Shown here piece after piece: positions 9,314 through 30,767 of a stretch of 64,000 bases of DNA (positions are counted from its first letter, which is position 1; each line of letters begins with the position of its first letter). Source of the stretch: Alphaproteobacteria bacterium (GTDB lineage Bacteria > Pseudomonadota > Alphaproteobacteria > Rickettsiales > JABSSG01); the NCBI GenBank assembly GCA_030431375.1, contig JAUIIY010000001.1, forward strand, positions 183,280 through 247,279, read 5' to 3'. The notes beneath the pieces were generated by a model that was not told where the DNA came from, ran no database searches, and saw only the letters and a program-made list of their open reading frames with translations. A program made the translations under genes and the position numbers.

Positions 9314-9346
9314 AGAAATTTATAGCCTTTCTTAGTAATGAAGATT

Positions 9347-10303: not shown

Positions 10304-10378
10304 GGTTAAGCCTTTTTTAGTTTAGTGAATTAATTAAAGAGAACGAGGGTTAACACCATCGCCACTCCTTAAACCAAA

Positions 10379-11092: not shown

Positions 11093-11098
11093 AATCTA

Positions 11099-12775
11099 CT
11101 ACCTCGATAAACCAGATAGAATACCACCAATTTTACCTAAGCCATTTTCTAGAACATTTTGAATTTTTTCACCTTTCTTTTTGGGCAGGAATTTTTTAAT
11201 GTTACGCGACACTTCACCAACCACCAAGTCTGTTTTAAAATTACGCCACATTTGCTCAAACTGACTTGAGCTATAATTACCAACTGCTGGATATTTCTCT
11301 TCAAAAGTTTTTTGTGCAGAAACTTCCAGTAAATCTGTATTTGATGGATCATTTGAGATTTTCAAAATGAAATTTTTAATTTTCTCGCCAACTGCCCTGC
11401 TTATTTTGAAATTTCCACCGCTAGCAAAGGAAACTAGCGAATTTGAATTTCCTATAGCCGAAGCAAAAGATAAAATTTCATCGACTAATCTTTGGTAATT
11501 TTTCACAGCTAAATCAAATTCATATTTTTCCTGATTATTTTTTACTAAATATTTTCCTTTCAATGCAGCACTATAAAGGTCGGTATTTATTTCAGCTTTT
11601 TTCACATCAACAAAAGAATTATTATTTTTACCTTTGTAATTTAATTTTGCCAAAAGTTTTATCTCACCAAACTCGTGCATTTTAGGAACATATGAGTTTG
11701 CAGAGCTAGATTTTGAAGATTTATTTAGAGAGTTCAAAATTTTCTCTAATGTAGAGTTACCCACTGAAAAACTAGGCATTAGCTCAAGAAGGCTACCACT
11801 ATATTTATCAGCCAGATGGTACCATTTATCACTAAAACTAACCTTACCTTCAAGATCAGTCTCAATTTTAGCCTCTTTAGCCATAGCAAAATCTGCAACA
11901 CCTGAGAAATTTAATTTAACCAAATCATCATGTAACTTTAACTTATCAACTTTAACATCACCCTTATTAGCGAGGTCTCCTGAATATTTAATTAAGATAT
12001 TATGGTTTATTGCACCTCTTTCAGCAAAATTGAAAACCTTAAAATATTTCCTTATTTTGCTATCCACCTTGTTAACGGCAGCATCTATATTTGCAACATT
12101 ATTCATCGCATAATTAATCAAGTTTTGAAAGCTTTGGCTAAATATGGCATTCACTAAAAACTCTTTTAGCTCAATTTTATATTTGTTTTTGCCAGCACTA
12201 TCCAGAGATAGCTTAAGCTCATATTCATCTATATTCAGCATGATAGTGTTGCTAAGCAGATCAACCACTTTTAGCTTGTCCCCAGATATTTTAATATAAT
12301 CTATAATTTTAAAAATCGCCTTGGGATCATCGCTAAGCGACGTAATATTGCTTAAGAAACTGCTAGATATTGGAGATGATTGTAAATTTACGATATAGTA
12401 AGTGCCCTCTTTTGCAGAAGCCTTTATTTTTAACCTATATCCACTAAGATTTCCAACTACGGAAGCTGGCCCATTAGTGGTTAAAGATATTTTTTCAGCA
12501 AATAAGCCTGCTTTTAATACACAGTCACCATCAATTTTTATCGATACCTTATTTGAACCATCATTAAAATTATATTCTGGATTAATAATTGTAATGTTAA
12601 AACTAAACGGAAAGCCTCCGACTTTAAAGGAATCATATTTCAAAGGGATATTATTGGATTTTAGAGTTTCCTCAAATTTAGAATTGATCATATATGAAGC
12701 AAAAAACCAAGCTCCACAGAATAAAAGCACCAATATGATCAGAAACGATAATAAAAACTTCTTCATTTTACACAC
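11099..12775 (-). CDS. Hypothetical membrane-anchored protein (558 aa)
   Basis: Long uninterrupted ORF with an N-terminal TM (LLSFLIILVLLFCGAWFFA). No family recognised. Its start overlaps the response-regulator stop by 13 nt. Confidence 0.5.
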   Translation of the reverse strand: MCKMKKFLLSFLIILVLLFCGAWFFASYMINSKFEETLKSNNIPLKYDSFKVGGFPFSFNITIINPEYNFNDGSNKVSIKIDGDCVLKAGLFAEKISLTTNGPASVVGNLSGYRLKIKASAKEGTYYIVNLQSSPISSSFLSNITSLSDDPKAIFKIIDYIKISGDKLKVVDLLSNTIMLNIDEYELKLSLDSAGKNKYKIELKEFLVNAIFSQSFQNLINYAMNNVANIDAAVNKVDSKIRKYFKVFNFAERGAINHNILIKYSGDLANKGDVKVDKLKLHDDLVKLNFSGVADFAMAKEAKIETDLEGKVSFSDKWYHLADKYSGSLLELMPSFSVGNSTLEKILNSLNKSSKSSSANSYVPKMHEFGEIKLLAKLNYKGKNNNSFVDVKKAEINTDLYSAALKGKYLVKNNQEKYEFDLAVKNYQRLVDEILSFASAIGNSNSLVSFASGGNFKISRAVGEKIKNFILKISNDPSNTDLLEVSAQKTFEEKYPAVGNYSSSQFEQMWRNFKTDLVVGEVSRNIKKFLPKKKGEKIQNVLENGLGKIGGILSGLSR

Positions 12776-13218
12776 AAATATTTAATTTCACCTTCAGTAA
12801 CAAAATGCAGTTCATCTACAGCATTACATATTGCACTTAATTTATCAAAATTTATTGGCTTATCATAAAGTGCTAAGGCCCCTAATTTTTTGAATTCTTC
12901 TGTCTTTTCAAATTTGATAATTCCTGAAAACATAACAACAGGTATATGCTTCAAAACATCATCCTTCTTTATTTTTTTCAAAACCTCATCACCATCCATA
13001 GTAATTAGCCTTTGATCAAGCAATATCAAATCTGGAAGCCTTTTTTCTGAGTCTTTAAACCTACCCTTAAATCTAAGATAGTCTAATGCCTCCGTACCAT
13101 CTCTAACATGATCCATTTGAACTTCGGTCTGCTCACGTCTAAGAACCATCATATTCAAAATATATTCATTCTTACTATCTTCAACAAACAGCACTTTAGC
13201 TAATTTTTTTTCAGACAT
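12763..13218 (-). CDS. Single-domain response regulator (receiver only)
   Basis: 151 aa; VLFVEDS acidic pocket, PDLILLDQRL phospho-acceptor Asp context, VVMFSG and a later K. No output domain. Confidence 0.8.
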   Translation of the reverse strand: MSEKKLAKVLFVEDSKNEYILNMMVLRREQTEVQMDHVRDGTEALDYLRFKGRFKDSEKRLPDLILLDQRLITMDGDEVLKKIKKDDVLKHIPVVMFSGIIKFEKTEEFKKLGALALYDKPINFDKLSAICNAVDELHFVTEGEIKYLCVK

Positions 13219-13267
13219 ATCCGTAAATTCTTTTCATTACTAAAATAATTATAACCGAAATCGAAAA

Positions 13268-13313
13268 TGGCGCAACCGGCAGGATTCGAACCTGCGACCC
13301 CAAGATTAGGAAT
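13268..13313 (-). repeat. Distal att repeat: exact copy of the 3' 46 nt of tRNA-Arg(CCT)
   Basis: tggcgcaaccggcaggattcgaacctgcgaccccaagattaggaat is identical to 30691-30736, checked base by base. The tRNA 5' half is absent here. Confidence 0.9.
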
Positions 13314-13453
13314 GTCAGGCGAGAAAATTACTGATATTTTATCTATATCTATAATCCTTTATCAGTCTTGCATTTTCCATTTCAAAGCATATATTACATT
13401 TTATGAAAATCAACCTAATTTAATCTAATTTGTATAACATACGTAGAACATAA

Positions 13454-14602
13454 ATGACAAAAAAAATTAATTTCACTCAAACTTTACTTAGCACTTTTCC
13501 TCCTCCTAAAAAAGGTACAAGAACTTACTATTATGATTCAAAAGTACCAGGTCTAGGCATAATGATATTTCCATCTGGAACAAAAACCTTTTTTCTTTAT
13601 AAACGCATTCATGACAAACCTGTAAAAGTAAAGCTTGGCAGATTTCAAGAAATCAGTGTTGAGCAGGCTAGAAATTTAGCTTTTAGAAATCTAAATGATA
13701 TTGCCAATGGGATAGATCCAAACGAGGAAAAGAAGAAACTTAGAAATCAGTCAACTTTCAAAGAATTGGCAGAGCGTTTTATTAATGAATATTCTAAGCA
13801 TAGAAAAAAATCTTGGAAGAACGACTTGGGATATTATACAAATCATCTAAAATTACTTGATAGAAAAAATCTTTCCAGCATAACCCCAACATTTTTGGAA
13901 AAGCTCCACAACAATATCAAGACAGATAAAGGTCTTTATGCAGCAAACCGTGTACTTGCATTATTAAAAACTATGTTTAATAAAGCTATCGATTGGGGAT
14001 ATAGTGGCAGCAACCCAACCTCTAAAATTAAAAAATTTGCTGAGAAAACTAGAGATAGAGCGATACAACCTCATGAATTAAAAAAATTTTTTGAATCTTT
14101 AAAACGTGAGAGCAACATTTTTTTCAAAGCATATATTTATATGAGCCTTTTAACTGGGGCTAGGAGGCAAAATGTTCTATCTATGCGTTGGCAAGACATC
14201 AATTTTGGTGATTGCGAATGGATTATCAAGGATACAAAAAACGGAGAGCCTCATACAGTTTCTTTAGTACCACAAGCTATTGACACACTTAAGGAACTTG
14301 AAAAATATTCAGGCTGTGAATGGGTATTCCCAAGTCACACAAGTAAATCAGGGCATTTAGAGGAGCCAAAAAAGGCATGGAAAAGATTGCTGGAAAGAGC
14401 TGACATCTCTGACTTACGTATCCACGATTTACGCAGAACTATGGCCAGCTGGCAAGTACGAACTGGTGCTAATAGCTTTATTATCAGTAAAACTCTGGGA
14501 CACAAAACTCAACAAGCCACAGCGATTTATGCCAGGGTTAGTAGAGATGTTGCTCGAGAGTCTATGGAAAATGCAGTGAATGCAATGTTTAAATATAACT
14601 AA
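13454..14602 (+). CDS. int: Tyrosine recombinase / P4-type phage integrase
   Basis: 382 aa. N-terminal arm-binding-type region (YYYDSKVPGLGIMIFPSGTKTFFLYKR) and catalytic residues in LTGARRQN, HDLRRT and LGHKTQQATAIYARV. Confidence 0.9.
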   Translation: MTKKINFTQTLLSTFPPPKKGTRTYYYDSKVPGLGIMIFPSGTKTFFLYKRIHDKPVKVKLGRFQEISVEQARNLAFRNLNDIANGIDPNEEKKKLRNQSTFKELAERFINEYSKHRKKSWKNDLGYYTNHLKLLDRKNLSSITPTFLEKLHNNIKTDKGLYAANRVLALLKTMFNKAIDWGYSGSNPTSKIKKFAEKTRDRAIQPHELKKFFESLKRESNIFFKAYIYMSLLTGARRQNVLSMRWQDINFGDCEWIIKDTKNGEPHTVSLVPQAIDTLKELEKYSGCEWVFPSHTSKSGHLEEPKKAWKRLLERADISDLRIHDLRRTMASWQVRTGANSFIISKTLGHKTQQATAIYARVSRDVARESMENAVNAMFKYN

Positions 14603-14817
14603 CAGTTTCCAGAAGTTAATTTCAATATATAACCGCTCTTAAGAACCTTATGAAAAAATTCACATTTTGATCTTACTGACCTTACCCCCGAAATTATGAG
14701 TCGAAGTTAGGAGACATTTCTAAAATAAATTACCTCAAACACACCCTGGATGCAATGTCCCAAATAAGAATTGTACGGGTTCAATACATAGTCTCATTTC
14801 TTGATTAAATAAACTTA

Positions 14818-15858
14818 CTAAACTGTTTCTTTAATTAAACTAACTGTATAGTTGATATCTTCAGCGTTAATATCTAGGTGAGTAATGGCCCTTATTTTGT
14901 CATTAATTATTCCCAACCTTACATTATATTTACTCAAACTTTTAAGAAGCCCTTCATTATTTGTTTTAGCATTATTATTTAAAGAGAAATATATAATATT
15001 AGTTTTGAACTGGGTTTTATCTATATCAATTTGAGGGATTTCATATAATAACTCGGCAAATAGTTTTGCCATTTTATGATCACCTTTTAGTCTAGACACA
15101 TTATTTTCTAGTCCATACAAACATGCAGCTGCAATAATACCAGCTTGGTGCATTCCGCCGCCTAATTGAAATTTATAGTACCAAGCCTCCTCAATAAAGC
15201 TTTTACTGCCTAAAAGGGCTGCTCCAATGGGTGCCCCCAAGCCTTTCGCGAAATCAATATAAACAGAATCAAAATACTGACAATATTCTTTAGGCGAAAT
15301 ATTAGTTTCAATAGACGCATTGAATAACCTAGCTCCATCCATGTGCAACCCAACTCCAAGCCGATCACATAGAGAGTGGATCCTTTTGATATTCTCGACT
15401 GGCCATATCGCTCCACCTCCAAAATTAGTTGTTTGTTCTATTGAAACGACCCTTGGACGTGGTATATTCCTTTTTTTTGGGGAGGTTAGTATGGTGTATA
15501 TATCTTCTACATCAAAAACCCCGTTCACTCCATTTATAGTATTTACAGAAGCGCCTACAACCCCTGGGATTAAGCCGGATTGAGTATTTAGTGGATGTGC
15601 AGTTTTATCAAGGATAATACAATCTCCAGGTCTCTTAATCAACGTTTTAAAGGCTATCAAATTAGCCATTGTGCCCGAAGGAAGAAAAATACCATCTTCT
15701 TTTCCAAGCAACTCACAGCAAGTTTCGATTAGTTTATTTACAGTTGGGTCTTCACCGGCCACTTCGTTCCCCACTTCTGCTGCAAACATAGCTTGTCGCA
15801 TTCCGTAGGAAACATTAGTGTTAGTATCACTAAAAAAATCAATAAATTTATTTTTCAT
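14818..15858 (-). CDS. Threonine-aldolase-family PLP enzyme (Beta_elim_lyase), paralog 1
   Basis: 346 aa; FFSDTNT, VAGEDPTVNKL, PSGTMANL, HMDGARLFNA and DFAKGLGAPIG (PLP Lys context). Confidence 0.8.
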   Translation of the reverse strand: MKNKFIDFFSDTNTNVSYGMRQAMFAAEVGNEVAGEDPTVNKLIETCCELLGKEDGIFLPSGTMANLIAFKTLIKRPGDCIILDKTAHPLNTQSGLIPGVVGASVNTINGVNGVFDVEDIYTILTSPKKRNIPRPRVVSIEQTTNFGGGAIWPVENIKRIHSLCDRLGVGLHMDGARLFNASIETNISPKEYCQYFDSVYIDFAKGLGAPIGAALLGSKSFIEEAWYYKFQLGGGMHQAGIIAAACLYGLENNVSRLKGDHKMAKLFAELLYEIPQIDIDKTQFKTNIIYFSLNNNAKTNNEGLLKSLSKYNVRLGIINDKIRAITHLDINAEDINYTVSLIKETV

Positions 15859-16906
15859 CTAAAATTTCCTCTATTACGTCTTGCAGTATATCAGATGCAA
15901 TGTGAACATCTTCTTCGTTAACATCCAAACAAACCACAGCCCTAATTTGATAATCGAGCCAAGGAAATAACAACAGACCCCTTGACTCGCATCTAGTAAG
16001 AAAATCTTCACTTGAAATCCCTAGCCTTGTGATATCAAATCCGACTATATTAGTTTCAACTTTATTGATGATTTTTATCAATGGGAGGTTTGATATTTTT
16101 TCTTCTAGCTTTTTTGCTAGATTATTATCAATTTTGAGTCTTTCTAAGTGGTTTTCTAACGCATATTTTGAAGCCCTTGCGTTGAAGCCAATTTGATGAT
16201 ACCCACTTCCCAACCAAACTAAAAAACGTTGAGCTTTTTCTATAGTTTCTTTGCTTCCTAATAAAACAGAACCAAATGGAGCTCCTAAACCTTTAGAAGT
16301 GCAAAAACTTAATGTATCAGAATATTTAGCATATTCTTTTAATGAAATTTTGGTTTCTACATGAGCATTAAATATCCGCGCACCATCCAAATGGAGTTTA
16401 ATCCCCTCATTTTTTAGAAAGGCATATAATTCTTTCTGTACTTCAAATGGGAATATTCTCCCCTGCCGACTATTTATACTATTCTCTATACTTACCAATT
16501 TAACTTGTGAGAAAAGCTTATATCTTTGTTTTGTACCTATGGCATTAACTATATCTTCTATCCTTAAAATACCATCTTCTGTGTTGACAGTATTCACCAC
16601 AACATTACAAATCCTTGCCATTGCACCACTGTCAAAAAAATTAACATGGTACCCATATTCTGTTACTACCTCATCACCAGGGGAGGTTTGAGATAAAAAC
16701 GCAAGCCTATTGGCAAGCATTCCGCTTGTAGTATATAAGGCGTCTTCAACCTCAAACAGCTCCTTGCAATACTCAATAAGTTTTAGATATTCTATATCCT
16801 CACCATAGGCATAGTCACCAACTTGTGCTTGCATCATATCATTAACAAGCTTTTTAGAGGGTCTACTTGTAGTGTCACTTCGCAAATCTATAAATTTTTT
16901 ATTCAT
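15848..16906 (-). CDS. Threonine-aldolase-family PLP enzyme (Beta_elim_lyase), paralog 2
   Basis: 352 aa; DLRSDTTSRPS, YGEDIEYLKL, HLDGARIFNA and CTSKGLGAPFGS, closely paralleling E. coli LtaE motifs. The start abuts the exporter stop. Confidence 0.85.
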   Translation of the reverse strand: MNKKFIDLRSDTTSRPSKKLVNDMMQAQVGDYAYGEDIEYLKLIEYCKELFEVEDALYTTSGMLANRLAFLSQTSPGDEVVTEYGYHVNFFDSGAMARICNVVVNTVNTEDGILRIEDIVNAIGTKQRYKLFSQVKLVSIENSINSRQGRIFPFEVQKELYAFLKNEGIKLHLDGARIFNAHVETKISLKEYAKYSDTLSFCTSKGLGAPFGSVLLGSKETIEKAQRFLVWLGSGYHQIGFNARASKYALENHLERLKIDNNLAKKLEEKISNLPLIKIINKVETNIVGFDITRLGISSEDFLTRCESRGLLLFPWLDYQIRAVVCLDVNEEDVHIASDILQDVIEEILDEK

Positions 16907-18574
16907 TCAAACATTAACAAATTCTTTATAATACTTATTTCTATATATACTCTCTGTTTTACTGTCACCGGTAATTTTTCCGTTTTCCACAACTATTGTT
17001 CTGGTCATTAGCTTTAGCAATGCTGGGTTATGTGTAATCAGAATAAGATTGTTAATTTTCGGATTAGCAATAATGTTTGCTACTATTTTCTTTGCTGTCA
17101 CTGGGTCTATAAAAGAGGTCGGTTCATCTAAAATAAGCAATTTCACATCGTGGTATAATGCTCTCGCTATAAGGAGTCTTTGTTTTTGTCCAACAGATAA
17201 ATTTTTTACATCAAGGGTGTCTATGAAATCATCACAAAAACTATCCATAACCGCCCTCTCAAATCTACTTTTGTTAAATTGAGACCCATAAATTATATTT
17301 TCTTTGGCCGATCTATCAAATAAATAAGGCTCTTGTTGTATATAGAGTATGTTCTTGTTGTAATTCCCAATCAAAGATGAGTTATTGTTTATTCTTATCT
17401 GTCCATCATCTGGTTTTAGAAAGCCAACTATAAGTTTTGCAATTGTGGTTTTCCCAGAGCCTGAAGGGCCTATCATTCCAACTAACTCCCCTCTTTGAAA
17501 CTTCAAATTTATATTATTAATGATTTTTTTACCATCTGGATTAAAAGATACCTCCAACAATTCTAAGTTTCTCACTTCTTCTACAAAAATATTGTTATGA
17601 TTCTTTACAGAGTCTTCAAGAGCCTGTGTTCTTACTTGATTCAGCTCAATAATAAACCCCATATCTTGATATAACTCTACTAAATGCAGACAAAACCTCC
17701 AAACATCCCTTCTATATATTACTGCTGAACCAAGAATAAAAAAGAACTCTCCCGTTGTAATCGTATGTTCATCCAATAAGCAAAGTGAATAATATATTAA
17801 GCCTCCAAAGAAAATAATTGAGGCAATACTTCTACCCAAATCTACAAAAAACAATCCCCACTCAAGACTTCTTTTTGTATTAACTTGATTATCAATATCT
17901 GCACAATATTTATTGTACTCGTACAGCTCTCTTTTTAAAATTTTGACACAAATGTAGTTTTTCAATACATCATTTAGTTTCCATATTAGTTTATTAAAGT
18001 TTACTGCATGTTTGGTAGATAAATTCACAATATAACCTACAGGAATTAAGCTGATGATTATCATTGCGGTTATCCATACTAAAAAATAATATGCTAACAA
18101 TTTTGATGAAAAGCTGATGATAATTACTGTAGCGATAAAGCCAAAGCTCACCGCCAGAACCCCATAGAAAATAAGTTTGAGAAAATTTTCAATTGTATTG
18201 TGGATATTTACAATTTTGCTAGAGGTGGAACTTGAATCATTTTTTATATGGAAATGAACTGAAACATATAAAATTTCTTTTAATAATTGCTTCTGAATAT
18301 TAGAGATATGAGTTGGTAGTAAATTGATTAATAGAATGTTGGTGAGTTTTATCAATAGTTCAACTATAAAAAAAATACCCACTATTATCAGCGCAGTTTT
18401 GGAGACAGAGTTTGCAAGTGCAATACCTGCATCTATTTGTAACCTAATTAAATAAAGGACTATAGTTTCTGCGGAGGTCCAAGTTAATATGAATATTACA
18501 GATATAGCCCACCATTTCCATGATTTCTGAAAGTCTAAGATTATACTATGTTTTAACTCTTTAATTAAAATCAT
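16907..18574 (-). CDS. ABC exporter, fused permease + ATPase
   Basis: 555 aa; about 300 aa with 6 TM, then Walker A GPSGSGKTT, signature LSVGQKQRLLIARAL and Walker B LLILDEPTS. No peptidase domain. Confidence 0.85.
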   Translation of the reverse strand: MILIKELKHSIILDFQKSWKWWAISVIFILTWTSAETIVLYLIRLQIDAGIALANSVSKTALIIVGIFFIVELLIKLTNILLINLLPTHISNIQKQLLKEILYVSVHFHIKNDSSSTSSKIVNIHNTIENFLKLIFYGVLAVSFGFIATVIIISFSSKLLAYYFLVWITAMIIISLIPVGYIVNLSTKHAVNFNKLIWKLNDVLKNYICVKILKRELYEYNKYCADIDNQVNTKRSLEWGLFFVDLGRSIASIIFFGGLIYYSLCLLDEHTITTGEFFFILGSAVIYRRDVWRFCLHLVELYQDMGFIIELNQVRTQALEDSVKNHNNIFVEEVRNLELLEVSFNPDGKKIINNINLKFQRGELVGMIGPSGSGKTTIAKLIVGFLKPDDGQIRINNNSSLIGNYNKNILYIQQEPYLFDRSAKENIIYGSQFNKSRFERAVMDSFCDDFIDTLDVKNLSVGQKQRLLIARALYHDVKLLILDEPTSFIDPVTAKKIVANIIANPKINNLILITHNPALLKLMTRTIVVENGKITGDSKTESIYRNKYYKEFVNV

Positions 18575-18610
18575 TTAAATATTTGACAAAGATACTATTA
18601 CTAGTTAACA

Positions 18611-19621
18611 ATGATATTTGATAATGTCCATAAAAAGTTTATGAGAGTCTTTGTAAGCGGAACGCTTGGTCTTGTTGGGAGAGCTTTAGTTGATTACTTA
18701 AAGGAAAGAAGGATTTCTTGCGTCACTGCTGATATCAGGTCTCCTATAGGGCAATCGGATCATATCAACATATGCGAAAAGGAAAAACTTCAAGCCGTTA
18801 TAAGTAATTGCGATGGAGTTATACACTTAGCAGCGGTGTCACGAATTGCTTGGGGAGAGCAGGCTCCTAAGGTTTGTGACATGATAAATATAATGGGCAC
18901 AAAAAACATTCTAGATGCTTGTATAAATGCCCCAAAAAAACCTTGGCTGGTCTTTGCAAGCAGTCGTGAAGTATACGGTCAACAAGAAACCTTTCCAATT
19001 AAAGAGGAGTGCACTTTCAACCCTAGAAATGTGTATGCAAAATCAAAGCTTGCTGCCGAAAAACTTGTTGAAGAAGCTTCTAATAATGGTCTTAGGGCTT
19101 TTATTGCAAGATTCTCAAACGTATATGGTGGTATGAATGACCATCGTGACAGAGTGGTGCCAGCCTTTTGTATAAATGCCATTAATAATGATCCTTTAAG
19201 GATAGATGGTGCTGATTGTATATATGACTTTACTCATATTAACGATGTGGTAGAGGGAATATTTAAAATTATTTCATTTATCACTTTCGAAAGATATTCA
19301 TATATTCCAAAAGTTCACTTTACAACAGGAAAACCTACTTCGCTTTTGGAGCTAGCTGAAAAGATTATAGCTTGTACCGGAAGCAATGCGCAACTTGATA
19401 TTAAAGAAGCCAGGCCTTATAGCACCCATAAATTTTATGGTGATAATACAAAAGCAAAAGAATTACTTAATTGGTCACCTCAAGTACCCATTGACGTTGG
19501 TATAAAAAAATTTATCACAGACTTGAAAACAACTAATAAAAGTCAGGCTATTTATAATAATAAATTTGTATTTGAGAATGAGAATTTTAAAAGTTATTCA
19601 TGGTTACCCTCCTCGATATAG
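18611..19621 (+). CDS. NAD-dependent epimerase/dehydratase (extended SDR)
   Basis: 336 aa; VFVSGTLGLVGRAL (GxxGxxG), SSREVYG and YAKSK (YxxxK). The likely true start is MRVFVSG at 18641. Confidence 0.85.
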   Translation: MIFDNVHKKFMRVFVSGTLGLVGRALVDYLKERRISCVTADIRSPIGQSDHINICEKEKLQAVISNCDGVIHLAAVSRIAWGEQAPKVCDMINIMGTKNILDACINAPKKPWLVFASSREVYGQQETFPIKEECTFNPRNVYAKSKLAAEKLVEEASNNGLRAFIARFSNVYGGMNDHRDRVVPAFCINAINNDPLRIDGADCIYDFTHINDVVEGIFKIISFITFERYSYIPKVHFTTGKPTSLLELAEKIIACTGSNAQLDIKEARPYSTHKFYGDNTKAKELLNWSPQVPIDVGIKKFITDLKTTNKSQAIYNNKFVFENENFKSYSWLPSSI

Positions 19622-21914
19622 CGCAGGTTCGGAGGTGTATAGCCAACATCTAGCACACGAACTTGCAAACTTTCATGACGTTCAAGTTTTTACCAGGCAA
19701 GAGAATAGTTTTATAGAAGATTATCATCTTTCTACAGAATTAGACCATTTAGACCCCAGAATTCTTATAAATATAATTAATGTTCCTAGAGTAAAATATC
19801 GAGATCAGTATATACATGCACCAGTAGAGGAATATTTTCGGAATATACTTAATAAATTTAACCCACATATAGTGCATTTCGGACACCTTAACCATTTATC
19901 TATAAACCTCCCTAAAATCGCTAAAGAGCTAGGCGTATTAACATTCATGACTTTACATGATTATTGGCTCCTCTGCCCACGTGGACAATTCGTTCAAAGG
20001 AATTCTCAATCTCCCTGGGACTTTTGCAAAGGGCAGGTAAATATCAAATGTGCAAAACAGTGCTATAGTGGGTCGTTTTCAGGGGATTCTGCTACCGAAG
20101 AAAAAGAAACTAAATTCAGAGAAAAGTGGATTGAGAATAGAATGCTTAAAGCACGAGGTGTGACAAATTACATAGATCATTTTGTAGCCCCTTCCAAATA
20201 TTTAAAAGAAAAGTTTTGTAATAGCTATAAGAAAGAAATAAACAAAAAAATCTCATTTTTAGACTATGGATTTAATCTAACTTATTTGATGGATAGAAGA
20301 AGAAACTCTGAGAAAGAATTTGTTTTTGGATATATCGGCACCCATACTCCCCAAAAAGGTATACAATTTTTACTACAGGCTTTTGATCTACTCAAAACTA
20401 AAAAAAACATAAAACTTAGGATATGGGGTTATTCTAAAGAAGATACACCTGCGCTGGAACTCATCCAACATACTTTAAAACAAAAGAATAATGTAGAGTG
20501 GAAGGAGGGATATAAAAATGAAGATATTATCGATAAGGTATTCAATAATATCGACGTTTTAATAGTGCCTTCTATTTGGGAAGAAAATTCTCCTTTAGTT
20601 ATCCACGAAGCTCAGCAAGCACGTATTCCCGTAATTACCGCCGATATTGGTGGGATGAAAGAATATGTTAAACACATGTTTAATGGATTATTGTTTAAGT
20701 TCAGAGACACAGCCGACTTATCACAAAAAATGCAAATGTTAGTTGATGATCCAACTCTTGCTATAAATCTGGGGGAAAAAGGATACTTATATAGTGTGAA
20801 CGGTAATATACCTGATATCCGAACTCATGCCAAAAAAATAGAAAAACTCTATCTAGAAACTGCTAAAAAACTTAAGAAGCTAATTCCTACTAAACCAGGA
20901 CCTTGGCGAATTACATTCGATACAAACCCTGATCATTGTAACTATAATTGTATTATGTGTGAATGCTTCTCACCATATAGTAAAACAAAAGAAGAAAGAG
21001 TAAAAGCTGGTATAAAAAAAAGGGTGATGGATATATCGGCAATCGAGAAAATACTTAGAGAATCGATCGGATCTCCATTGGAAGAAATTATTCCCTCCAC
21101 TATGGGAGAACCTCTTCTATATAAAAATTTCGAAAGAATAATTGAGCTATGTCACGCTTATAACTTAAAATTAAATCTAACAACAAATGGTTCTTTCCCG
21201 ATAAAAGGGGCTAAGAAATGGTCTGAGCTTCTTATTCCTGTTTGCTCGGATATTAAAATTTCAATCAACGGAGCATCCGAAGCTATTAACCAAAAAATAA
21301 TGGTAGGGTCGAAATGGAATGATATGCTATCTAACATTAAGACGCTGTTATCATATAGAGATAATTATCCTAAGCATAAAAATAGGTGCCGTGTTACTTT
21401 TCAAGTTACTTTTTTGGAAACTAATTCTAACGAGCTCATTAATATATTGAAATTAGCAATCTCTCTAGGGGTAGATAGAGTAAAGGGTCATCATTTATGG
21501 GCTCATTTCAAAGAGATAGAAAACTTATCGATGCGACGAAATAGCGAAGTTATTAATAAGTGGAATAAAATAGTAAGTAAACTCCACAAAGTTGCTGAAC
21601 AAAATCTTTTGCCAAACGGTAAAAAAATCAAATTGGAAAATTTTCATCCCTTGGATGAGAATGCCATCTCGGATATAGCTAAAGGTGGGGCTTGCCCTTT
21701 TTTAGGAAGAGAGGCATGGATTAGCGCTGAAGGAATTTTTAGCCCTTGTTGTGCACCAGATAAGTTAAGAAAATCACTAGGTGATTTTGGCTATATCAAC
21801 TCACAGACCATCCAAGATATATGGATGAGTGATAAATACAGACAACTCAGAAAAAACTTTAACCACCACAAGTTGTGCATATCGTGCAACATGAGAAAAC
21901 CATTATCGAGTTAA
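19566..21914 (+). CDS. Fusion protein: GT-B (GT4-like) glycosyltransferase + radical SAM/SPASM domain
   Basis: 782 aa. The N-terminal half has EENSPLVIHEAQQARIPVITADIGGMKEYV. CNYNCIMC (CX3CX2C) lies at nt 20937-20960, and the Cys-rich C-terminus reads CPF..SPCCAP..CISCN. The likely start is MRILKV at 19578. Confidence 0.8.
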   Translation: MYLRMRILKVIHGYPPRYSAGSEVYSQHLAHELANFHDVQVFTRQENSFIEDYHLSTELDHLDPRILINIINVPRVKYRDQYIHAPVEEYFRNILNKFNPHIVHFGHLNHLSINLPKIAKELGVLTFMTLHDYWLLCPRGQFVQRNSQSPWDFCKGQVNIKCAKQCYSGSFSGDSATEEKETKFREKWIENRMLKARGVTNYIDHFVAPSKYLKEKFCNSYKKEINKKISFLDYGFNLTYLMDRRRNSEKEFVFGYIGTHTPQKGIQFLLQAFDLLKTKKNIKLRIWGYSKEDTPALELIQHTLKQKNNVEWKEGYKNEDIIDKVFNNIDVLIVPSIWEENSPLVIHEAQQARIPVITADIGGMKEYVKHMFNGLLFKFRDTADLSQKMQMLVDDPTLAINLGEKGYLYSVNGNIPDIRTHAKKIEKLYLETAKKLKKLIPTKPGPWRITFDTNPDHCNYNCIMCECFSPYSKTKEERVKAGIKKRVMDISAIEKILRESIGSPLEEIIPSTMGEPLLYKNFERIIELCHAYNLKLNLTTNGSFPIKGAKKWSELLIPVCSDIKISINGASEAINQKIMVGSKWNDMLSNIKTLLSYRDNYPKHKNRCRVTFQVTFLETNSNELINILKLAISLGVDRVKGHHLWAHFKEIENLSMRRNSEVINKWNKIVSKLHKVAEQNLLPNGKKIKLENFHPLDENAISDIAKGGACPFLGREAWISAEGIFSPCCAPDKLRKSLGDFGYINSQTIQDIWMSDKYRQLRKNFNHHKLCISCNMRKPLSS

Positions 21915-21917
21915 AGA

Positions 21918-23504
21918 ATGAATAATTATACTAGTATATCGAATATCTATATATCCTCTGATTCATCACATCATATTGTTAGGAACAAGCCTTTATATAA
22001 ACAAAGATATAAATTTGTAGGTAAATTCCATGAACCAGGTTTAGCACCTGTTTGGGATGATTCAGGCTGGTTTCATATTAACACAAAAGGACTACCTGTA
22101 TACTCAAAAAGATACGATAAAGCTTTTGGCTTTTATTGTGGAGTAGCGACAGTCATAAAGGACAAAAAATGGGTGCATATAAATGAATATGGTGAAAAAA
22201 TTCACAACAAAAATTTTGATTGGTCTGGAAATTTCCAAGAAAATTTGTGTGTGGTCAAATCATGTGAAGGTTATCTTCATATAAAAAAGAACGGAGACAA
22301 CCTGTACGATATGATCTACGATTATGTAGGGGATTTCAAAGATGGAATTGCTGTAATATATAAGTCCAATAAATCATCACACATCAATAAAACTGGTAAA
22401 TTAACTCACAACAATTGGTTTAAACAGGTCGGTGTCTATCACAAAGGGTATGCAACTGCCGAAGATGATGAAGGGTGGTTCCACATTGACCTAGAAGGTA
22501 ATGAATTATACCCAACCAGATATAGATTTGTTGAACCATTTTATAATGATTATGCAAGAGTAGAAACTTTTAGTGGAAAATTCCTTCAAGTTGACATTAA
22601 CGGCAATATATTTAATCAACTAGGAGACGATTCGGAAAGATTCTATAAAACTTCTATATCAGGAGACTTAGTGGGCTTCTGGAAAACTCAAATAATATAT
22701 GCAGCTGTATCTCTTAATATTTTCAGTAATCTACCGACTTCGGTGGAAAAGTTATCTCATGCCTTAGGAATACCTGAAAATAATTTAATACGATTATTAA
22801 GAGCTTTAGAAGAACTAAAACTTCTGAACAGAGAGAATACAATATTTTCTCTAAGTGAAAAAGGAGATATATTTAAAAAATACCCGTATTTACAAGACGC
22901 AGCAATCATGTGGGGTAGAGTTGCTAGTCAGCATTGGGAAAAACTTCCTGAACTGTTGACACAAAAAGAAATTGATAGTCACCTCTCATTTAAAGATACA
23001 GAACCAAATCAAATTCTTGGAAAATGTTATCAAGACGCATTAGACGGTTATTTAAAGGATGATCTCGCATCATTAACAAATATAGTAGGAAATACCAATA
23101 AAAATATTATATGTATTGGTAAATCCTCAGAGCTATTGATCAAATCCCTAAAAAAAACTGCGCCAAATACAAGGTTCTTTTCAGATTTGAATAATGCAAA
23201 GAATTCAGCCTTGTGTGTCTTCCTAAAACACCTTCTGCATTTCGATGATAAGAACGTTAGCAAGCTCCTCCTAAAAGTTAAGAATTTAAACATCAAAAAC
23301 ATTATAATTATCGAACCATTGATTTCCCACGAAAGCTCAGCTGGAGGGATGTTAGATATTAATATGCTAATAGAGAGCGGTGGAAAGCTTAGGACAGAGA
23401 AAGATTATAAAGCACTACTAGATTCAAAAAATTATCTCATACAGTCAGTGAAAGATATCACTCCCTACCTACAAGTAATTTTCGCCATACAAAACAATGA
23501 ATGA
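21918..23504 (+). CDS. Fusion protein: WG-repeat (KWG-like) beta-repeat domain + O-methyltransferase-like domain with degenerate SAM motif
   Basis: 528 aa. About 5 repeats of the type GLAPVWDDSGWFHINTKG / GYATAEDDEGWFHIDLEG, then a wHTH dimerisation-like segment (KLSHALGIPENNLIRLLRALEELKLL), then an OMT-like core with IICIGKSS in place of DVGGGxG. Confidence 0.65.
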   Translation: MNNYTSISNIYISSDSSHHIVRNKPLYKQRYKFVGKFHEPGLAPVWDDSGWFHINTKGLPVYSKRYDKAFGFYCGVATVIKDKKWVHINEYGEKIHNKNFDWSGNFQENLCVVKSCEGYLHIKKNGDNLYDMIYDYVGDFKDGIAVIYKSNKSSHINKTGKLTHNNWFKQVGVYHKGYATAEDDEGWFHIDLEGNELYPTRYRFVEPFYNDYARVETFSGKFLQVDINGNIFNQLGDDSERFYKTSISGDLVGFWKTQIIYAAVSLNIFSNLPTSVEKLSHALGIPENNLIRLLRALEELKLLNRENTIFSLSEKGDIFKKYPYLQDAAIMWGRVASQHWEKLPELLTQKEIDSHLSFKDTEPNQILGKCYQDALDGYLKDDLASLTNIVGNTNKNIICIGKSSELLIKSLKKTAPNTRFFSDLNNAKNSALCVFLKHLLHFDDKNVSKLLLKVKNLNIKNIIIIEPLISHESSAGGMLDINMLIESGGKLRTEKDYKALLDSKNYLIQSVKDITPYLQVIFAIQNNE

Positions 23505-24486
23505 GATGCAGCAGTTTAAAGAACAAGGATTTACTGTATTTCGGAACTTAATTGACGAATCACATGTTGATAGCCTCAAGAGTGAAGTGATTAAAAAGAT
23601 TTACGTTTATGCTGATAAGTTGGAGGTCAACTTCTCGAAATATACTTTTTGTACAGGTAGATGGTTGCTAAATGATAACTCTATAGGACCTATTGAAGCT
23701 ATAGAAAAGAAACTTTCTGACATAATTGCAAACGAATTAGGAACGCAGATAAGCATAAAAAAGAGAAATATCACTTGTAAAAACAAGTTTATCACTAATG
23801 AAGTACCTCTACACCAAGACATCTCATATTCACCGTCAGATCCATATGATTTTACTACTTGGATTGCTTTGAATGATGTACCATTGGGCTCAGGAGAATT
23901 AATATTCGTGCCAACAAGTCAAAATTTTAATATAGAACCAGCGATAGATTTTTGGAGTCCGGATTTTCATGATAAAAATAAAGATAAATTCAAAAATAGC
24001 ATAGTTAATATCCATTTGCGAAAAGGAGACGTAGTAATGTTTGATTCGAGATTATGGCATGGAAGTAACAAAAATCTTAATCAGCAAGATAGATATGCAT
24101 ATGTGGTTAGATGGAAATATGAAGATACAAGAACACCTGATCTTGTAATACCTAACCCTATTCCTTCTGAGTTCGGAATGTGGACTTGTTATACGGAAAC
24201 AAAAAAAATTCTTTCTCAAATTCAAAACAAAGCTTCTACAGATCTAAATAACTTGATAACTGGAGCAATATCACATTTAGACACGACGAAAAACATGCAG
24301 TTCGATAAAACAAAAGCAATTATTGACCTCAAAAACCTTGCAGTTCTTCACAACGCTGCCAATACCCAAAATGCAGGAGATTTATGTGGCATCATATATA
24401 AAAACCTTTGGTATTCTCTCCTAAGGTGGGTCTGTTCAGATAAATGTAATGGGATGGACTCCTCGGATATTCAGAGTAAGATCTGA
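23497..24486 (+). CDS. Phytanoyl-CoA dioxygenase (PhyH)-family Fe(II)/2-oxoglutarate oxygenase
   Basis: 329 aa; PLHQDISY (HxD), WIALNDV, GDVVMFDSRLWHGSNKN (distal His). The start overlaps the upstream stop (ATGAATGA). Confidence 0.8.
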   Translation: MNEMQQFKEQGFTVFRNLIDESHVDSLKSEVIKKIYVYADKLEVNFSKYTFCTGRWLLNDNSIGPIEAIEKKLSDIIANELGTQISIKKRNITCKNKFITNEVPLHQDISYSPSDPYDFTTWIALNDVPLGSGELIFVPTSQNFNIEPAIDFWSPDFHDKNKDKFKNSIVNIHLRKGDVVMFDSRLWHGSNKNLNQQDRYAYVVRWKYEDTRTPDLVIPNPIPSEFGMWTCYTETKKILSQIQNKASTDLNNLITGAISHLDTTKNMQFDKTKAIIDLKNLAVLHNAANTQNAGDLCGIIYKNLWYSLLRWVCSDKCNGMDSSDIQSKI

Positions 24487-24967: not shown

Positions 24968-26335
24968 TCATTGTTCACATTCGTTCAAAGAGGCTCCATC
25001 TTCACCTATACAAAACATATCAATCTTAGTGTCATTGCAATCTGGTATACCTGATGAAAATTTAACTTGAGATATTACAGGGCTGACGTGTGCATTCCAG
25101 TATGTAATTAGCGGGCTTAAGAGCTCTATGGCAGCAGGTGAGATGTCTTTGGTATGTAGCTCGGCAAGACGAGCTATTACTTCAGCTTCAGCATTCATAT
25201 CGGGATAAAAATATGCCTCAATTAACCTATCTAGAACCAATAATAATGAGTTATCTAACTTCATATTGGCTGCTAAAGTGAAGTAATATTTTTCTAGATA
25301 TGCTTTTTTACCCAAGAAGTTATTTTCTTGTATTTGAATGTCTTCTGGAGGAGGAAATAGTTTAAGGCAATCAGCAATAAAACCATGGTCATGTTGTCTT
25401 GAAGGGTAAAGATATAAGGGTAAGTATGATTTAATGGTTAGGCACCCCATAGTCTTTTGGTTATCCGCTGTTTGGTCCAATTGACAATCTAATATTAGTT
25501 GAGAAGTTAAGCTAGGGGAATGAGTCTTGACCACTACTTGCAACAATATGTCTTGGAATATCCTAGTGTAATCCAGCTCTGCTTTCCTATTTGTGGATGA
25601 ATAGGGCTTTGCATCATTATGAAAGAGAAATGACTGTACATAATGTCCTATTTCATGGATAAATTGTCCTTCTTCAAAATTATTATATGCATATAAGGGC
25701 ATATATATAGCTTGCTGTCCTCCAACAACTTTATGCACAGCTTCACGTTGGGCATGCTCAACATGTGGCAATATAATTTTAGTATTTTGATGAGTTAACA
25801 AGGCTAGAGATGTAGCTTCTAAGGTTTCAGTGATAACGTTATTGCTTGTTGATCCAAAAGATCTATATATTCCAAATGTTTTATCTTTCTGAGTGCTGGG
25901 GTATATATATGTATAACTGCCAAGTATAGCGGTGCTGTTAAGACATAGAGGCTTTGTGGCTAACATTGGGCCAGCAGCAAGTGCTTTTATTATAGCATAT
26001 CCCTGTTCAGCTGCTGTTGCTGATATTATATTGCTTAATTCTCCCAAGTGAGAAACATATTTAGAAATATTACCTTGTTGTGGGTGAGAAAAAGTTAAAT
26101 CTGATGCAGAGAATGTGGTGCCATAAAGTACTAGATTTTTAGCAATACTCAAAGCATCTCCTTGATAAGCAAGAGCCAGCAGATTAGTCTGAAATTCAGA
26201 AAAATGCGGATCAGCTGTTTTTGTGTTGAAAATATAATTTGCTGTTTGATCAGCTCCAAGTGTAATCGCATAATACACCGCTGCAGTCAGAGGCAAATTA
26301 TCCAATTGGGTCTTTAGATCTTTGTTAAATACCAT
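24968..26335 (-). CDS. Hypothetical protein with HExxH motif (possible zinc metallopeptidase-like effector)
   Basis: 455-aa uninterrupted ORF. HEIGH lies at residues 227-231 (nt 25643-25657), with a Glu about 22 aa downstream. No signal peptide or TM seen and no family recognised. Confidence 0.55.
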   Translation of the reverse strand: MVFNKDLKTQLDNLPLTAAVYYAITLGADQTANYIFNTKTADPHFSEFQTNLLALAYQGDALSIAKNLVLYGTTFSASDLTFSHPQQGNISKYVSHLGELSNIISATAAEQGYAIIKALAAGPMLATKPLCLNSTAILGSYTYIYPSTQKDKTFGIYRSFGSTSNNVITETLEATSLALLTHQNTKIILPHVEHAQREAVHKVVGGQQAIYMPLYAYNNFEEGQFIHEIGHYVQSFLFHNDAKPYSSTNRKAELDYTRIFQDILLQVVVKTHSPSLTSQLILDCQLDQTADNQKTMGCLTIKSYLPLYLYPSRQHDHGFIADCLKLFPPPEDIQIQENNFLGKKAYLEKYYFTLAANMKLDNSLLLVLDRLIEAYFYPDMNAEAEVIARLAELHTKDISPAAIELLSPLITYWNAHVSPVISQVKFSSGIPDCNDTKIDMFCIGEDGASLNECEQ

Positions 26336-26340
26336 TGATT

Positions 26341-26607
26341 TTATTCTGCATCATAGGAAAAAAATTCTTTACTAAAATCACCAAGTAGTTGATCAAGATT
26401 TTTACCATGTAAAGGATGCTCATTTGGTGATATCTGTTCTATTTGTTTGCGGCCATCATTTGTCATAGTTGTTTGATTCCCCAACCCTTTAACAGCATTA
26501 TGGATGACAAGCTCTGAGTATTGAATGCTGGAATGAGATGACCTGATTCCAGCTGCATCCATTTGTAGTTGTTCTAAAAGATCTTTTTCTGTGATTGGTT
26601 CTGCCAT
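26341..26607 (-). CDS. Hypothetical small protein (88 aa), upstream partner of the HExxH protein
   Basis: The ORF ends 5 nt before the 455-aa ORF start on the same strand. Acidic/polar composition; no family recognised. Confidence 0.45.
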   Translation of the reverse strand: MAEPITEKDLLEQLQMDAAGIRSSHSSIQYSELVIHNAVKGLGNQTTMTNDGRKQIEQISPNEHPLHGKNLDQLLGDFSKEFFSYDAE

Positions 26608-26909: not shown

Positions 26910-27642
26910 ATGCAAATATTTGGATTGCACAAGAACATATATAAAATAGCCAATTATAGTTTACAACAAGAAATCACAGATGAATCGATAGCATTACGCC
27001 AGAAGCTGTTTAGTGATTGGGAATTACTAAAGTCGCGAGGAGTGTCAATAACGGAGATATCCAGGGTCACCGGGATAAGCAGAGCAACATATTATCGTCG
27101 GAAGAAGTTAGTTCAGCTATACGGATTGAAAGGGTTTCTAAGCAGGTCAAAGAGGCCACATAATGTAAGACAGAGTAAGATATCCAAATTAGTAATAGAT
27201 TTGGTTTTAAAGCTGCGTATTGGGAATCCCACATATGGTAAATCTAAGCTAGCAGTAATATTAAAAAAAGATCATGCAGTATCTATATCAGAGAGCAGTG
27301 TTGGTAGGATATTAAGCAGTTTAATAAAAGCTGGTAAAATAAGCAAATATACTAGATCCCGTTATAGCAAGAAGAGGCGTAAGTTCAAGTCTCATGCGCA
27401 GAAATGGCAATATGGCATGAGAGCTACATCTCCAGGAGAATTAGTGCAAATAGATCATATGAGTGTGACTAAGAATATATTCTCTTTTAAGCATTTTCAA
27501 GCATGGGATCCAATAACTAAAGTAATAATAGCGGATATTAGCTCTAATGCTAAAAGCCTAACGGCAGCAAAATTTTTAAGGAAGCTGATTAAAGAGCTGC
27601 CATTTAAGTTAAAATCAATTCAGGTTGATGGGGGCAGCGAGT
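26910..27642 (+). pseudogene. IS481-family transposase, disrupted by IS3-family insertion
   Basis: HTH (ISRVTGISRATYYRRKK), an rve-type core with VQIDHM and IQVDGGSE. The frame is then broken where the IS3-type inverted repeat begins at 27643. Confidence 0.7.
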
Positions 27643-27717
27643 TGGTCTTCTCCCGAAAAAAAGGACAGGATAAAGTGAGAAAAATCTCTAAAATAACAAT
27701 AAAAAAGAGGTTTTAAG

Positions 27718-27984
27718 ATGAAGAAGACAAAATTCACAGAAGAGCAGATATCCCTGGCATTACACAAAGTAGATACTGGCCTGCCAGCAGAAGAAGTATG
27801 TCGAAAGCTGGGCATAGGTTACTCAACTTTTTATAGATGGAGACAAAAATATGGTGGATTACTTCCATCAGAAGTTAGAAAACCGAAACAATTAGAAGAT
27901 GAGAATAAGCAGCTCAAGAAGCTAGTTGCAGATTTGAGTTTGGATAAAATGATGTTGCAGGATGTATTGGGAAAAAAGGCTTGA
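27718..27984 (+). CDS. IS3-family transposase OrfA (HTH)
   Basis: 88 aa; MKKTKFTEEQISLALHKVDTGLPAEEVCRKLGIGYSTFYRWRQKYGG plus a leucine-zipper-like tail, the typical IS407-group OrfA. Confidence 0.8.
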   Translation: MKKTKFTEEQISLALHKVDTGLPAEEVCRKLGIGYSTFYRWRQKYGGLLPSEVRKPKQLEDENKQLKKLVADLSLDKMMLQDVLGKKA

Positions 27985-28660: not shown

Positions 28661-28742
28661 TGTCGTGTACTGACCATTTGGTCAAAACATGAAAAAATTG
28701 AGATTTTCTCATTTAACCTGTCCAACTTCTGGGGGCTCTCCA

Positions 28743-30690: not shown

Positions 30691-30767
30691 GTGGCGCAAC
30701 CGGCAGGATTCGAACCTGCGACCCCAAGATTAGGAATCTTGTGCTCTATCCTGCTGAGCTACGGCTG
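30691..30767 (-). tRNA. tRNA-Arg (anticodon CCT)
   Basis: Minus-strand 77 nt: GCAGCCG-TA-GCTC..GAGC-A-CAAGA-TTCCTAA-TCTTG-GGGTC-GCAGG-TTCGAAT-CCTGC-CGGTTGC-G-CCA. The cloverleaf folds by hand and CCA is encoded. Confidence 0.9.

Follow-up and report, generated by a model that had tools for sequence, protein, structure and literature searches.

The question raised by this locus is what seven tightly packed genes, at positions 14818-24486 of a 64,000-nucleotide stretch of DNA (hereafter the window; positions 183,280 to 247,279 of contig JAUIIY010000001.1, assembly GCA_030431375.1), could be for and where they come from. A preliminary description of the region had held that the set matches no recognised pathway and that it is unusual cargo for a host-associated genome. 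Both views have to be given up. By homology and gene content, the seven genes were shown to be an intact, diverged and rearranged copy of WD0612-WD0618, that is UC2-UC8, the core of the Undecim Cluster (UC), and such a set is typical cargo of host-associated genomes. The explanation that we favour overall, and consider highly probable, combines this Undecim core on a genomic island with small-molecule glycoside chemistry and an ancestry in free-living bacteria.

All seven open reading frames (ORFs) were found where the preliminary description had placed them, with every junction as described. On the minus strand, two genes for pyridoxal phosphate (PLP) enzymes of the threonine-aldolase family, aldolase 1 (14818-15858; PF01212, E 1e-81) and aldolase 2 (15848-16906; PF01212, E 7e-70), overlap by 11 nt, and the start of aldolase 2 abuts the stop of a gene for an ATP-binding cassette (ABC) exporter with fused transmembrane and nucleotide-binding domains (16907-18574; PF00005 and PF00664). 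A divergent intergenic region of 36 bp in the ORF map (18575-18610) separates these genes from four on the plus strand. The first encodes an extended short-chain dehydrogenase/reductase (SDR) of the nucleotide-sugar epimerase/dehydratase type (18611-19621; PF01370, E 3e-40), for which an alternative start at 18641 is possible. The second encodes a fusion of a family 4 glycosyltransferase (GT4) with radical S-adenosylmethionine (SAM) and SPASM domains (GT-rSAM; 19578-21914), with Pfam matches to PF00534, PF13692 and PF13439 in addition to PF04055 and PF13186. The mechanical ORF of this gene begins at 19566, and alignment with homologues placed the start at the ATG at 19578, giving a protein of 778 aa (P0001). 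Beginning 3 nt past its end, the third gene encodes WG beta-repeats joined to a small-molecule O-methyltransferase (OMT) fold (WG/OMT; 21918-23504; PF14903, PF08100 and partial PF00891). The fourth encodes a PhyH-family Fe(II)/2-oxoglutarate dioxygenase (23497-24486; PF05721, E 1e-20) and overlaps WG/OMT at ATGAATGA (-8 nt). The junctions of the cassette in order measure 0, -11, 36, about -44, 3 and -8 nt, so that the ORFs within each operon are contiguous or overlapping.

The Pfam families that had been predicted for these proteins were all recovered in the HMM scan with the exception of PF16864, the dimerisation domain of the OMT part being PF08100 instead. Both aldolases scored above the NCBIfam GntG-family cutoff of 230 bits (300.9 bits for 14818-15858 and 253.2 bits for 15848-16906). 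In agreement with the preliminary description, the domain scan found no non-ribosomal peptide synthetase, polyketide synthase, terpene or regulator domain among the seven gene products. Promoter-like matches in the 36-bp gap were at chance level, as were the matches from a wider scan for promoters and terminators, which therefore carries no information on operon structure.

All seven products have a wMel homologue at the corresponding position. In BLASTP comparisons, identity to the wMel protein was 43% for the SDR (UC2/WD0612), 56% for GT-rSAM (UC3/WD0613), 39% for WG/OMT (UC4/WD0614), 37% for PhyH (UC5/WD0615), 57% for aldolase 2 (UC7/WD0617) and 59% for aldolase 1 (UC8/WD0618), and these genes can be regarded as the respective orthologues. 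The ABC exporter, at 25% identity to UC6/WD0616 (E 1e-35), is a positional counterpart, matching WD0616 in length (555 aa) and occupying an equivalent place upstream of UC7. It is the least conserved component of the cassette, its identity to the ABC proteins of the related loci L006, L010 and L011 being 32-34%.

WD0612-WD0618 have been described as a putative operon that Wolbachia has in common with three rickettsial plasmids (pREIS2, pRhe and pREIP), and in Wolbachia mass spectrometry gave good coverage of six of its seven proteins, the exception being WD0616 (Baldridge 2015, PMC4701759). The 'Undecim Cluster' comprises UC1-UC11 (WD0611-WD0621) in the eukaryotic association module (EAM) of prophage WO (Bordenstein & Bordenstein 2022, PMC9203015). 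Its core is laterally shared among Wolbachia, Rickettsia plasmids, Cardinium and Phycorickettsia (PMC4701759, PMC9203015), and a duplication of the core in an obligate Wolbachia strain was reported in a 2025 paper.

Our searches gave hundreds of full-length homologues of the GT-rSAM fusion at 50-63% identity, the named ones being from Rickettsia (including plasmids), Wolbachia, Cardinium, Midichloriaceae, Phycorickettsia and Arsenophonus plasmids. On plasmid pREIP all seven genes are present and collinear. In the phage WO record of wMel the seven are also collinear, with GlmU-like and GlpT-like genes, a UDP-glucose dehydrogenase gene and a DMT gene on their flanks. The complete set of seven is present in 14 other fetched loci, from Wolbachia, from chromosomes and plasmids of Rickettsia, from Midichloriaceae and from unclassified Rickettsiales. 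By tblastn, UC1, UC9, UC10 and UC11 were found nowhere in the 64-kb window, and they are likewise missing on the rickettsial plasmids. A megablast search of the 9.7-kb region against plasmids returned no match, indicating a divergence too great for searches at the DNA level. The seven genes were not found in any characterised O-antigen or capsule locus or in any characterised biosynthetic gene cluster, and the proposal of a single functional unit is in this respect left standing.

In Wolbachia and on the Rickettsia plasmids, UC2 to UC8 run on one strand, whereas in the window the UC6-UC7-UC8 block is inverted and located upstream of UC2, resulting in two divergent operons. The divergent layout is shared by aquatic Rickettsiales, Midichloriaceae among them, and was found in L006 (Logan SRR33465477 contig, 1-19458), in a metagenome-assembled genome (MAG) of Midichloriaceae (L010) and in an MAG of an uncultured 'Rickettsia sp.' (L011). 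L006 is the closest relative of the cassette and is located in a RAGE-like conjugative element with an integrase gene and with genes for TraK, TraE, TraL, a TLC-type ATP/ADP translocase and a trypsin-like protein of 1128 aa. A third order (UC2-5, UC7, UC8, ABC) was present among the fetched loci, as were reduced cassettes consisting of UC2-5 alone or of UC2-5 plus ABC. In a neighbour-joining tree of GT-rSAM, the symbiont-type loci form one clade, inside which there is one exception, an unclassified Bacteroidota fragment (L023) that is too short to classify. The window falls together with L006, Aquarickettsia and Midichloriaceae and outside the Wolbachia/Rickettsia-plasmid branch.

A reduced cassette was also seen on louse-fly Arsenophonus plasmids (L003; CP132902, 3703-15907), consisting of SDR, a split GT-rSAM, methyltransferase, PhyH and one aldolase, and adjoining the pantothenate genes panBCE. 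The GT-rSAM match at this locus is in two pieces, suggesting a frameshift or a pseudogene.

The origin of the cassette can be approached through its wider family. A profile-guided scan of one genome per species gave at least 556 matching stretches, the best 80 loci of which were examined; a scan of genome contigs with a single GT-rSAM protein gave no match, and the alignment-based rescan succeeded. The best 80 loci are from Rickettsiales, Myxococcota, Planctomycetota, Latescibacterota, Beta- and Gammaproteobacteria, cyanobacteria and Verrucomicrobia. Neighbouring ORFs were clustered for 77 loci. GT-rSAM is followed by WG/OMT in all but one of these (76/77) and is preceded by the SDR in 50. The gene after WG/OMT is a His_Phos_1 histidine phosphatase in 36 loci, all of the free-living type, and PhyH in 23 loci, all of which are in the symbiont clade except those of Ramlibacter (L047) and Marinobacteraceae (L062). 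In 16 loci there is an aldolase pair and in 17 an ABC exporter, in each case in the symbiont clade alone. The clustering of the 77 loci gave no other conserved neighbours.

A module of SDR, GT4-rSAM, WG/OMT and phosphatase is the free-living form, which occurs in Myxococcota, Planctomycetota, Beta- and Gammaproteobacteria, Latescibacterota and cyanobacteria. It has the first three genes in the same order as the cassette, with about 50% identity in GT-rSAM, and it differs in the canonical SAM motifs of its OMT, in having His_Phos_1 in place of PhyH, and in being without aldolases or exporter. At the level of sequence, the comparison shows the symbiont cassette to be a derivative of this widespread module. 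The same comparison indicates that, in the symbiont clade, the phosphatase was swapped for PhyH, two aldolases and an exporter were gained, and the SAM-binding motifs of the OMT were lost. Syntenic homologues of WD0612-0614 had been noted before (Baldridge 2015, PMC4701759), and our literature search for a characterisation of the GT-rSAM/WG-OMT module found nothing relevant.

In Pyxidicoccus parkwayensis (L007; CP071090, 10001-15849), GT-rSAM and a canonical OMT stand directly before CD_NTase_C and patatin genes in a CBASS-like arrangement, and the locus, the only one of its kind among the 77, is without SDR or phosphatase. A neighbourhood of this kind would suit an anti-phage or conflict system, in which a viperin-like radical-SAM enzyme and a 'conflict-system' GT4 make a modified nucleotide that would block a competitor, and the window protein does match the GT4-conflict family PF20706 (29.3 bits) and, in the PADLOC scan, pVip (E 2e-11). 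These matches are, however, far weaker than the generic GT1 and radical-SAM matches. The other six proteins matched no specific PADLOC model, the scan giving generic ATPase and viperin-like matches, and the adjacency to CD-NTase and patatin was seen in just one or two of the 77 loci. Obligate intracellular symbionts, moreover, meet few phages, yet keep and highly express the cassette. Based on the PADLOC results and the rarity of the CD-NTase adjacency, a role in defence is considered very improbable.

The catalytic signatures are intact in six of the seven proteins, all ORFs being full length. The remaining protein is WG/OMT. Its AlphaFold2 model (predicted local distance difference test score, pLDDT, 90.4) has an N-terminal beta-hairpin repeat domain, and its C-terminal domain resembles natural-product OMTs (Plu4890-95, MmcR, LaPhzM and DnrK) with target TM-scores of 0.70-0.75. 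The C-terminal domain keeps the class I OMT fold but lacks the motif I and the acidic motif II of SAM-dependent OMTs of this class. Motif I reads ICIGKSS, not xDxGGGxG, and the region of motif II is deleted in the window and in L006. None of the 20 symbiont-type WG/OMT proteins has xDxGGGxG, LDRPEV or LHDW (examples of the degenerate form are ICIGKSS and LLFGVHS), whereas degeneration was found in 0 of 38 proteins of the free-living type, in which xDxGGGxG, LDRPEV and RVLHDW are canonical. In the precomputed Pfam domains, PF00891 is absent from most close UC4 homologues. The OMT-like domain of the symbiont-type proteins has thus probably lost SAM binding, as judged from motifs and modelled structure, and methylation is therefore not counted in the chemistry of the cassette.

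In the two aldolases, the PLP lysine (within KGLGAP in 14818-15858) and the H.DGAR motif are conserved. The closest structure to the UC7-like enzyme is the L-allo-threonine aldolase of Thermotoga maritima (1jg8), and both aldolases are close to it. In PhyH, conservation of the HxD...H triad and of the Arg extends over 24 homologues.

For the GT-rSAM fusion, the AlphaFold2 model had a pLDDT of 84.7 and a predicted TM-score (pTM) of 0.83. The EX7E motif of the GT domain (E340 and E348) is invariant in 15 sequences, as expected for a retaining GT-B enzyme. In the same 15 sequences, the CX3CX2C motif (C458, C462 and C465) and the SPASM cysteines (C710, C728, C729, C771 and C774) are also invariant, as expected for a radical-SAM/SPASM enzyme. 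An insertion in the GT4 N-domain has four further cysteines (C137, C154, C162 and C166 in the 782-aa numbering) that do not vary among 15 homologues drawn from several phyla. Model confidence at this insertion is low (pLDDT 60-77). The four cysteines may provide a further metal or Fe-S site that connects the GT half with the radical-SAM half.

By Foldseek and profile search, the nearest relatives of the GT domain are MshA, GlgM, sucrose-phosphate synthase (SPS) and BshA, with Foldseek target TM-scores mostly of 0.7-0.77 (0.41-0.45 for the MshA entry 3c48). They share with it the EX7E motif and the retaining GT-B fold. They differ in that identity is 15-17%, none is fused to a radical-SAM domain, and the GT domain described here has four extra invariant cysteines. 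MshA, GlgM, SPS and BshA use small, soluble and mostly phosphorylated acceptors, and a dedicated phosphatase follows the MshA, SPS and GlgM step. This likeness is in keeping with the presence of a phosphatase in the ancestral module.

The same GT domain can also be read as part of the machinery that modifies a bacterial cell-surface glycan, such as lipopolysaccharide (LPS), exopolysaccharide (EPS) or a peptidoglycan-linked sugar, with the ABC protein exporting the glycan precursor. Many GT4 members are LPS or EPS enzymes, and there were weak NCBIfam matches to EpsE, HpsO, PelF and TuaC. The SDR is a nucleotide-sugar enzyme, the ABC protein is distantly similar to MsbA and PglK (NCBIfam), and published models place UC1-UC3 and UC10 in EPS/LPS synthesis (PMC9203015, PMC4701759). 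A surface polymer would nevertheless call for partners that are missing: no initiating phosphoglycosyltransferase, Wzx/Wzy, Wzm/Wzt or chain-length regulator is present in the island or conserved in the 77 loci. The nearest GT structures act on soluble small acceptors, and the partner proteins are of a small-molecule type (natural-product OMT fold, histidine phosphatase, PhyH and threonine aldolases). Taken together, the fold neighbours of the GT, the OMT fold, the aldolase structures and the phosphatase argue for a soluble small-molecule glycoside pathway rather than a surface polymer, and the surface-glycan explanation is unlikely, even if it is the strongest of the alternatives.

The radical-SAM half resembles generic SPASM enzymes, with SuiB as its best structural neighbour and a weak match to BtrN in the region of the auxiliary cluster. 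SPASM radical-SAM enzymes are typical maturases of ribosomally synthesised and post-translationally modified peptides (RiPPs), and the nucleotide-binding domain of the ABC protein resembles bacteriocin exporters (NCBIfam). The cassette could on this basis mature a peptide that is cross-linked by the radical-SAM/SPASM domain, glycosylated, hydroxylated and exported. The preliminary description had seen no precursor peptide, and this was borne out: no small ORF is truly conserved across related loci, those that appear 'conserved' being out-of-frame shadows of conserved genes. The Pfam scan also found no RRE domain, and the ABC protein is without a peptidase domain. Threonine aldolases and a nucleotide-sugar SDR do not suit RiPP logic, and the free-living core has a phosphatase and no exporter. 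Because a conserved precursor ORF is missing, we give peptide maturation hardly any weight.

In the SDR, conservation of the GxxGxxG, SSREVYG and YxxxK motifs across 51 homologues is 90% or higher. Its third-best PDB match, over the full length, is TunA (3vps; E 4e-18), with which it has S-x-E-V-Y-G in common (STCEVYG in TunA and SSREVYG in the window). This raises the idea, attractive as one version of the small-molecule explanation, of a tunicamycin-like or high-carbon sugar-nucleoside antibiotic, for which a TunA-like SDR would make an exo-glycal and the radical-SAM domain would form a C-C bond as TunB does, the GT4, the methyltransferase-like protein and the phosphatase corresponding to TunD, TunM and TunG. 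The tun cluster holds an SDR, a radical-SAM enzyme, a GT, a SAM-methyltransferase-like protein, a phosphatase and an ABC exporter (PMC6105854), and octosyl acid is built by a radical-SAM enzyme and a phosphatase (PMC5365060). However, ordinary UDP-glucose 4-epimerases match the SDR equally well (5e-18), so that the likeness to TunA is real and not specific. No domain corresponds to TunC (acyltransferase), TunE (deacetylase) or TunH (pyrophosphatase), which are essential to the tun pathway, and the sequence comparison covered TunA alone. A product of this class is accordingly rather improbable, a little more so than a surface glycan.

The most likely function of the cassette, drawn from sequence families and modelled folds, would be the synthesis and export of a modified small-molecule glycoside. 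The kinds of chemistry proposed in the preliminary description (nucleotide-sugar conversion, glycosyl transfer, radical chemistry, hydroxylation, aldol chemistry and export) fit the domain and fold evidence. In the pathway that we propose, the SDR would remodel a UDP-sugar, and the GT4 domain would move the sugar onto a small soluble acceptor, which was probably phosphorylated in the ancestral pathway. The radical-SAM/SPASM domain would work on the glycoside, for example by oxidation to a carbonyl, with the WG/OMT-fold protein acting as a binding or scaffolding partner and not as a methyltransferase. The two aldolases could make or break a beta-hydroxy-alpha-amino-acid linkage (from glycine and an aldehyde), PhyH would hydroxylate the product, and the ABC exporter would secrete it.

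Several points weigh against this explanation. Every biochemical step comes from family membership, and the order of the steps and the acceptor are guesses. The loss of SAM binding was deduced from motifs and an AlphaFold2 model, and relatives such as RdmB show that OMT folds can take other SAM-dependent roles. Orthology of the exporter with WD0616 stands on position and length only, at 25% identity. Published suggestions favour roles in EPS or LPS (PMC9203015, PMC4701759), and the literature of 2025 (December 2025) states the functions of the Undecim genes as unknown.

Within the small-molecule glycoside explanation, a more specific scheme can be put forward tentatively, in which the symbiont cassette is a rewired pathway of an undescribed class making an exported metabolite of the glycosylated beta-hydroxy-amino-acid type. 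It would have started from an SDR, a GT4-rSAM, an active OMT and a histidine phosphatase that together made a methylated glycoside of a phosphorylated acceptor. The phosphatase would then have been lost and the methyltransferase inactivated, and PhyH, two glycine-dependent aldolases and an exporter recruited. If this were true, it could explain the spread of the cassette among intracellular symbionts of the Alphaproteobacteria, Bacteroidota and Gammaproteobacteria, as a shared 'symbiosis metabolite' acting on eukaryotic hosts or competitors.

The Undecim core in the window is carried by an island, as had been proposed. The tRNA-Arg(CCT) gene (30692-30768, minus strand) ends in a 46-nt segment (its 3' part, 30692-30737) that forms attR, the right end of the island, and a perfect direct repeat of this segment at 13268-13313 forms attL, the left end. 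Adjoining attL is a tyrosine integrase gene (13454-14602, plus strand; PF00589 and Arm-DNA-bind_3), whose product shares 59% identity with the integrase of L006, an element with the same cassette. Based on the perfect repeat of the tRNA end and the adjoining integrase, the island is about 17.4 kb long. The closest relative, L088, provides an empty-site control: a response regulator gene lies 0.8 kb from tRNA-Arg(CCT) with a short peptidase-M24 fragment between them, the tRNA gene is followed by PAP2 and uvrB, one copy of the 46 nt is present and the island is absent. The integrase, the att repeats and this empty site indicate that the island is mobile, and with the joint occurrence of the seven genes in other loci they support the earlier view of one horizontally mobile unit. 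In L088, PAP2 is on the other side of tRNA-Arg as compared with the window (10379-13218 in the window and 958-4692 in L088). The rearranged synteny around the integration site suggests earlier events at a tRNA-Arg hotspot.

Directly after the cassette, two orphan ORFs on the minus strand encode 455 aa (24968-26335) and 88 aa (26341-26607). They had no Pfam or PADLOC match and no homologue in the 88 fetched loci. They may be lineage-specific effector cargo of the island. Decayed insertion-sequence (IS) remnants follow at 26910-28700 (plus strand; HTH_32, HTH_Tnp_1 and fragmented transposase ORFs), comprising a 268-aa HTH/rve-like ORF, an 88-aa ORF like OrfA of IS3 and fragmented pieces of OrfB. 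At 29880-30033 (plus strand) there is a relic of a group II intron, a D1-D4 fragment (Rfam RF02012, 84.7 bits) without a reverse-transcriptase ORF. With these relics, the right half amounts to a mobile-element graveyard. The island as a whole has the tyrosine integrase and the IS and intron relics, and no phage structural or WO genes were found in it. It also has no tra genes, unlike the L006 element, and it may be a stripped-down derivative of an element of that kind.

The state of the right half, the absence of tra genes and the degenerate OMT domain could be taken to mean that the cassette itself is decaying, non-functional cargo of a dead island. The seven full-length ORFs are, however, tightly coupled and have conserved catalytic residues, and the degenerate OMT is found throughout the symbiont clade, also in strains where mass spectrometry detected the proteins. 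With intact ORFs and conserved catalytic residues, decay is a very weak contender.

The island is flanked by alphaproteobacterial housekeeping genes (uvrB, leuS, proS-like, ispD and dus-ntrY-ntrX), and the synteny of dus-ntrY-ntrX is present in the window. The closest named match of the leucyl-tRNA synthetase (LeuRS) is 71% identical and comes from an MAG labelled 'Rickettsiales bacterium', the relative with the empty site, whereas identity to Holosporaceae and other Alphaproteobacteria is about 55-57%. As judged from these genes, the host of the cassette is an uncultured Rickettsiales-like alphaproteobacterium. An intracellular or host-associated lifestyle is inferred only from its nearest relatives, MAGs labelled Rickettsiales. 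Elsewhere in the chromosomal flank, and unrelated to the island, a gene at 6281-7852 (minus strand) encodes a 523-aa protein made almost entirely of pentapeptide repeats (PF00805, E 4e-43).

Few accessory gene sets of arthropod endosymbionts are as widely shared or as highly expressed as the Undecim core. The cassette itself is named and has been repeatedly discussed in endosymbionts, and the locus is therefore not a new kind of system. The window adds a distant, intact copy in a lineage that is neither Wolbachia nor Rickettsia, a second gene order, and a cleanly delimited 17.4-kb island with att sites that is convenient for cloning. New here, from the sequence comparisons, are the ancestral module with a phosphatase, the gain of PhyH, aldolases and exporter in symbionts, and the loss of the SAM motifs in UC4. 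These comparative results narrow the biochemical hypotheses and are useful leads to the product of the cassette, and the culturable Myxococcus, Sorangium, Ramlibacter and Halomonas are tractable organisms for the core chemistry.

Among known systems, the aminoglycoside-like AGAB cluster of Rickettsia buchneri (RAGE-A) was also considered, as it is likewise mobile 'antibiotic-like' cargo in Rickettsia. Its gene list includes a PIG-L deacetylase, KanB/BtrR and HemL aminotransferases and others (PMC8770908), and it was rejected because it shares no family with the seven genes. Compared with the eleven-gene Undecim Cluster, the window is without UC1 (GlmU-like), UC9 (a GlpT-type transporter), UC10 (UDP-glucose dehydrogenase) and UC11 (a DMT permease), has no association with the prophage WO EAM or a WO-like island, and differs in gene order, but it has homologues of UC2-UC8, and lateral transfer among endosymbionts follows the same pattern in both. 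The closest likeness is to the WD0612-WD0618 cassette of Baldridge. The two differ in their carrier, which is a tRNA-Arg integrase island in the window and a plasmid or prophage elsewhere, and in an extra deletion of the motif II region in the UC4 protein of the window. They agree in the tight coupling or overlap of their genes, in their carriage by a mobile element in an alphaproteobacterium of the intracellular type, and in the seven families, which correspond one to one: SDR, GT4-rSAM/SPASM, WG/OMT, PhyH, ABC and two aldolase paralogues.

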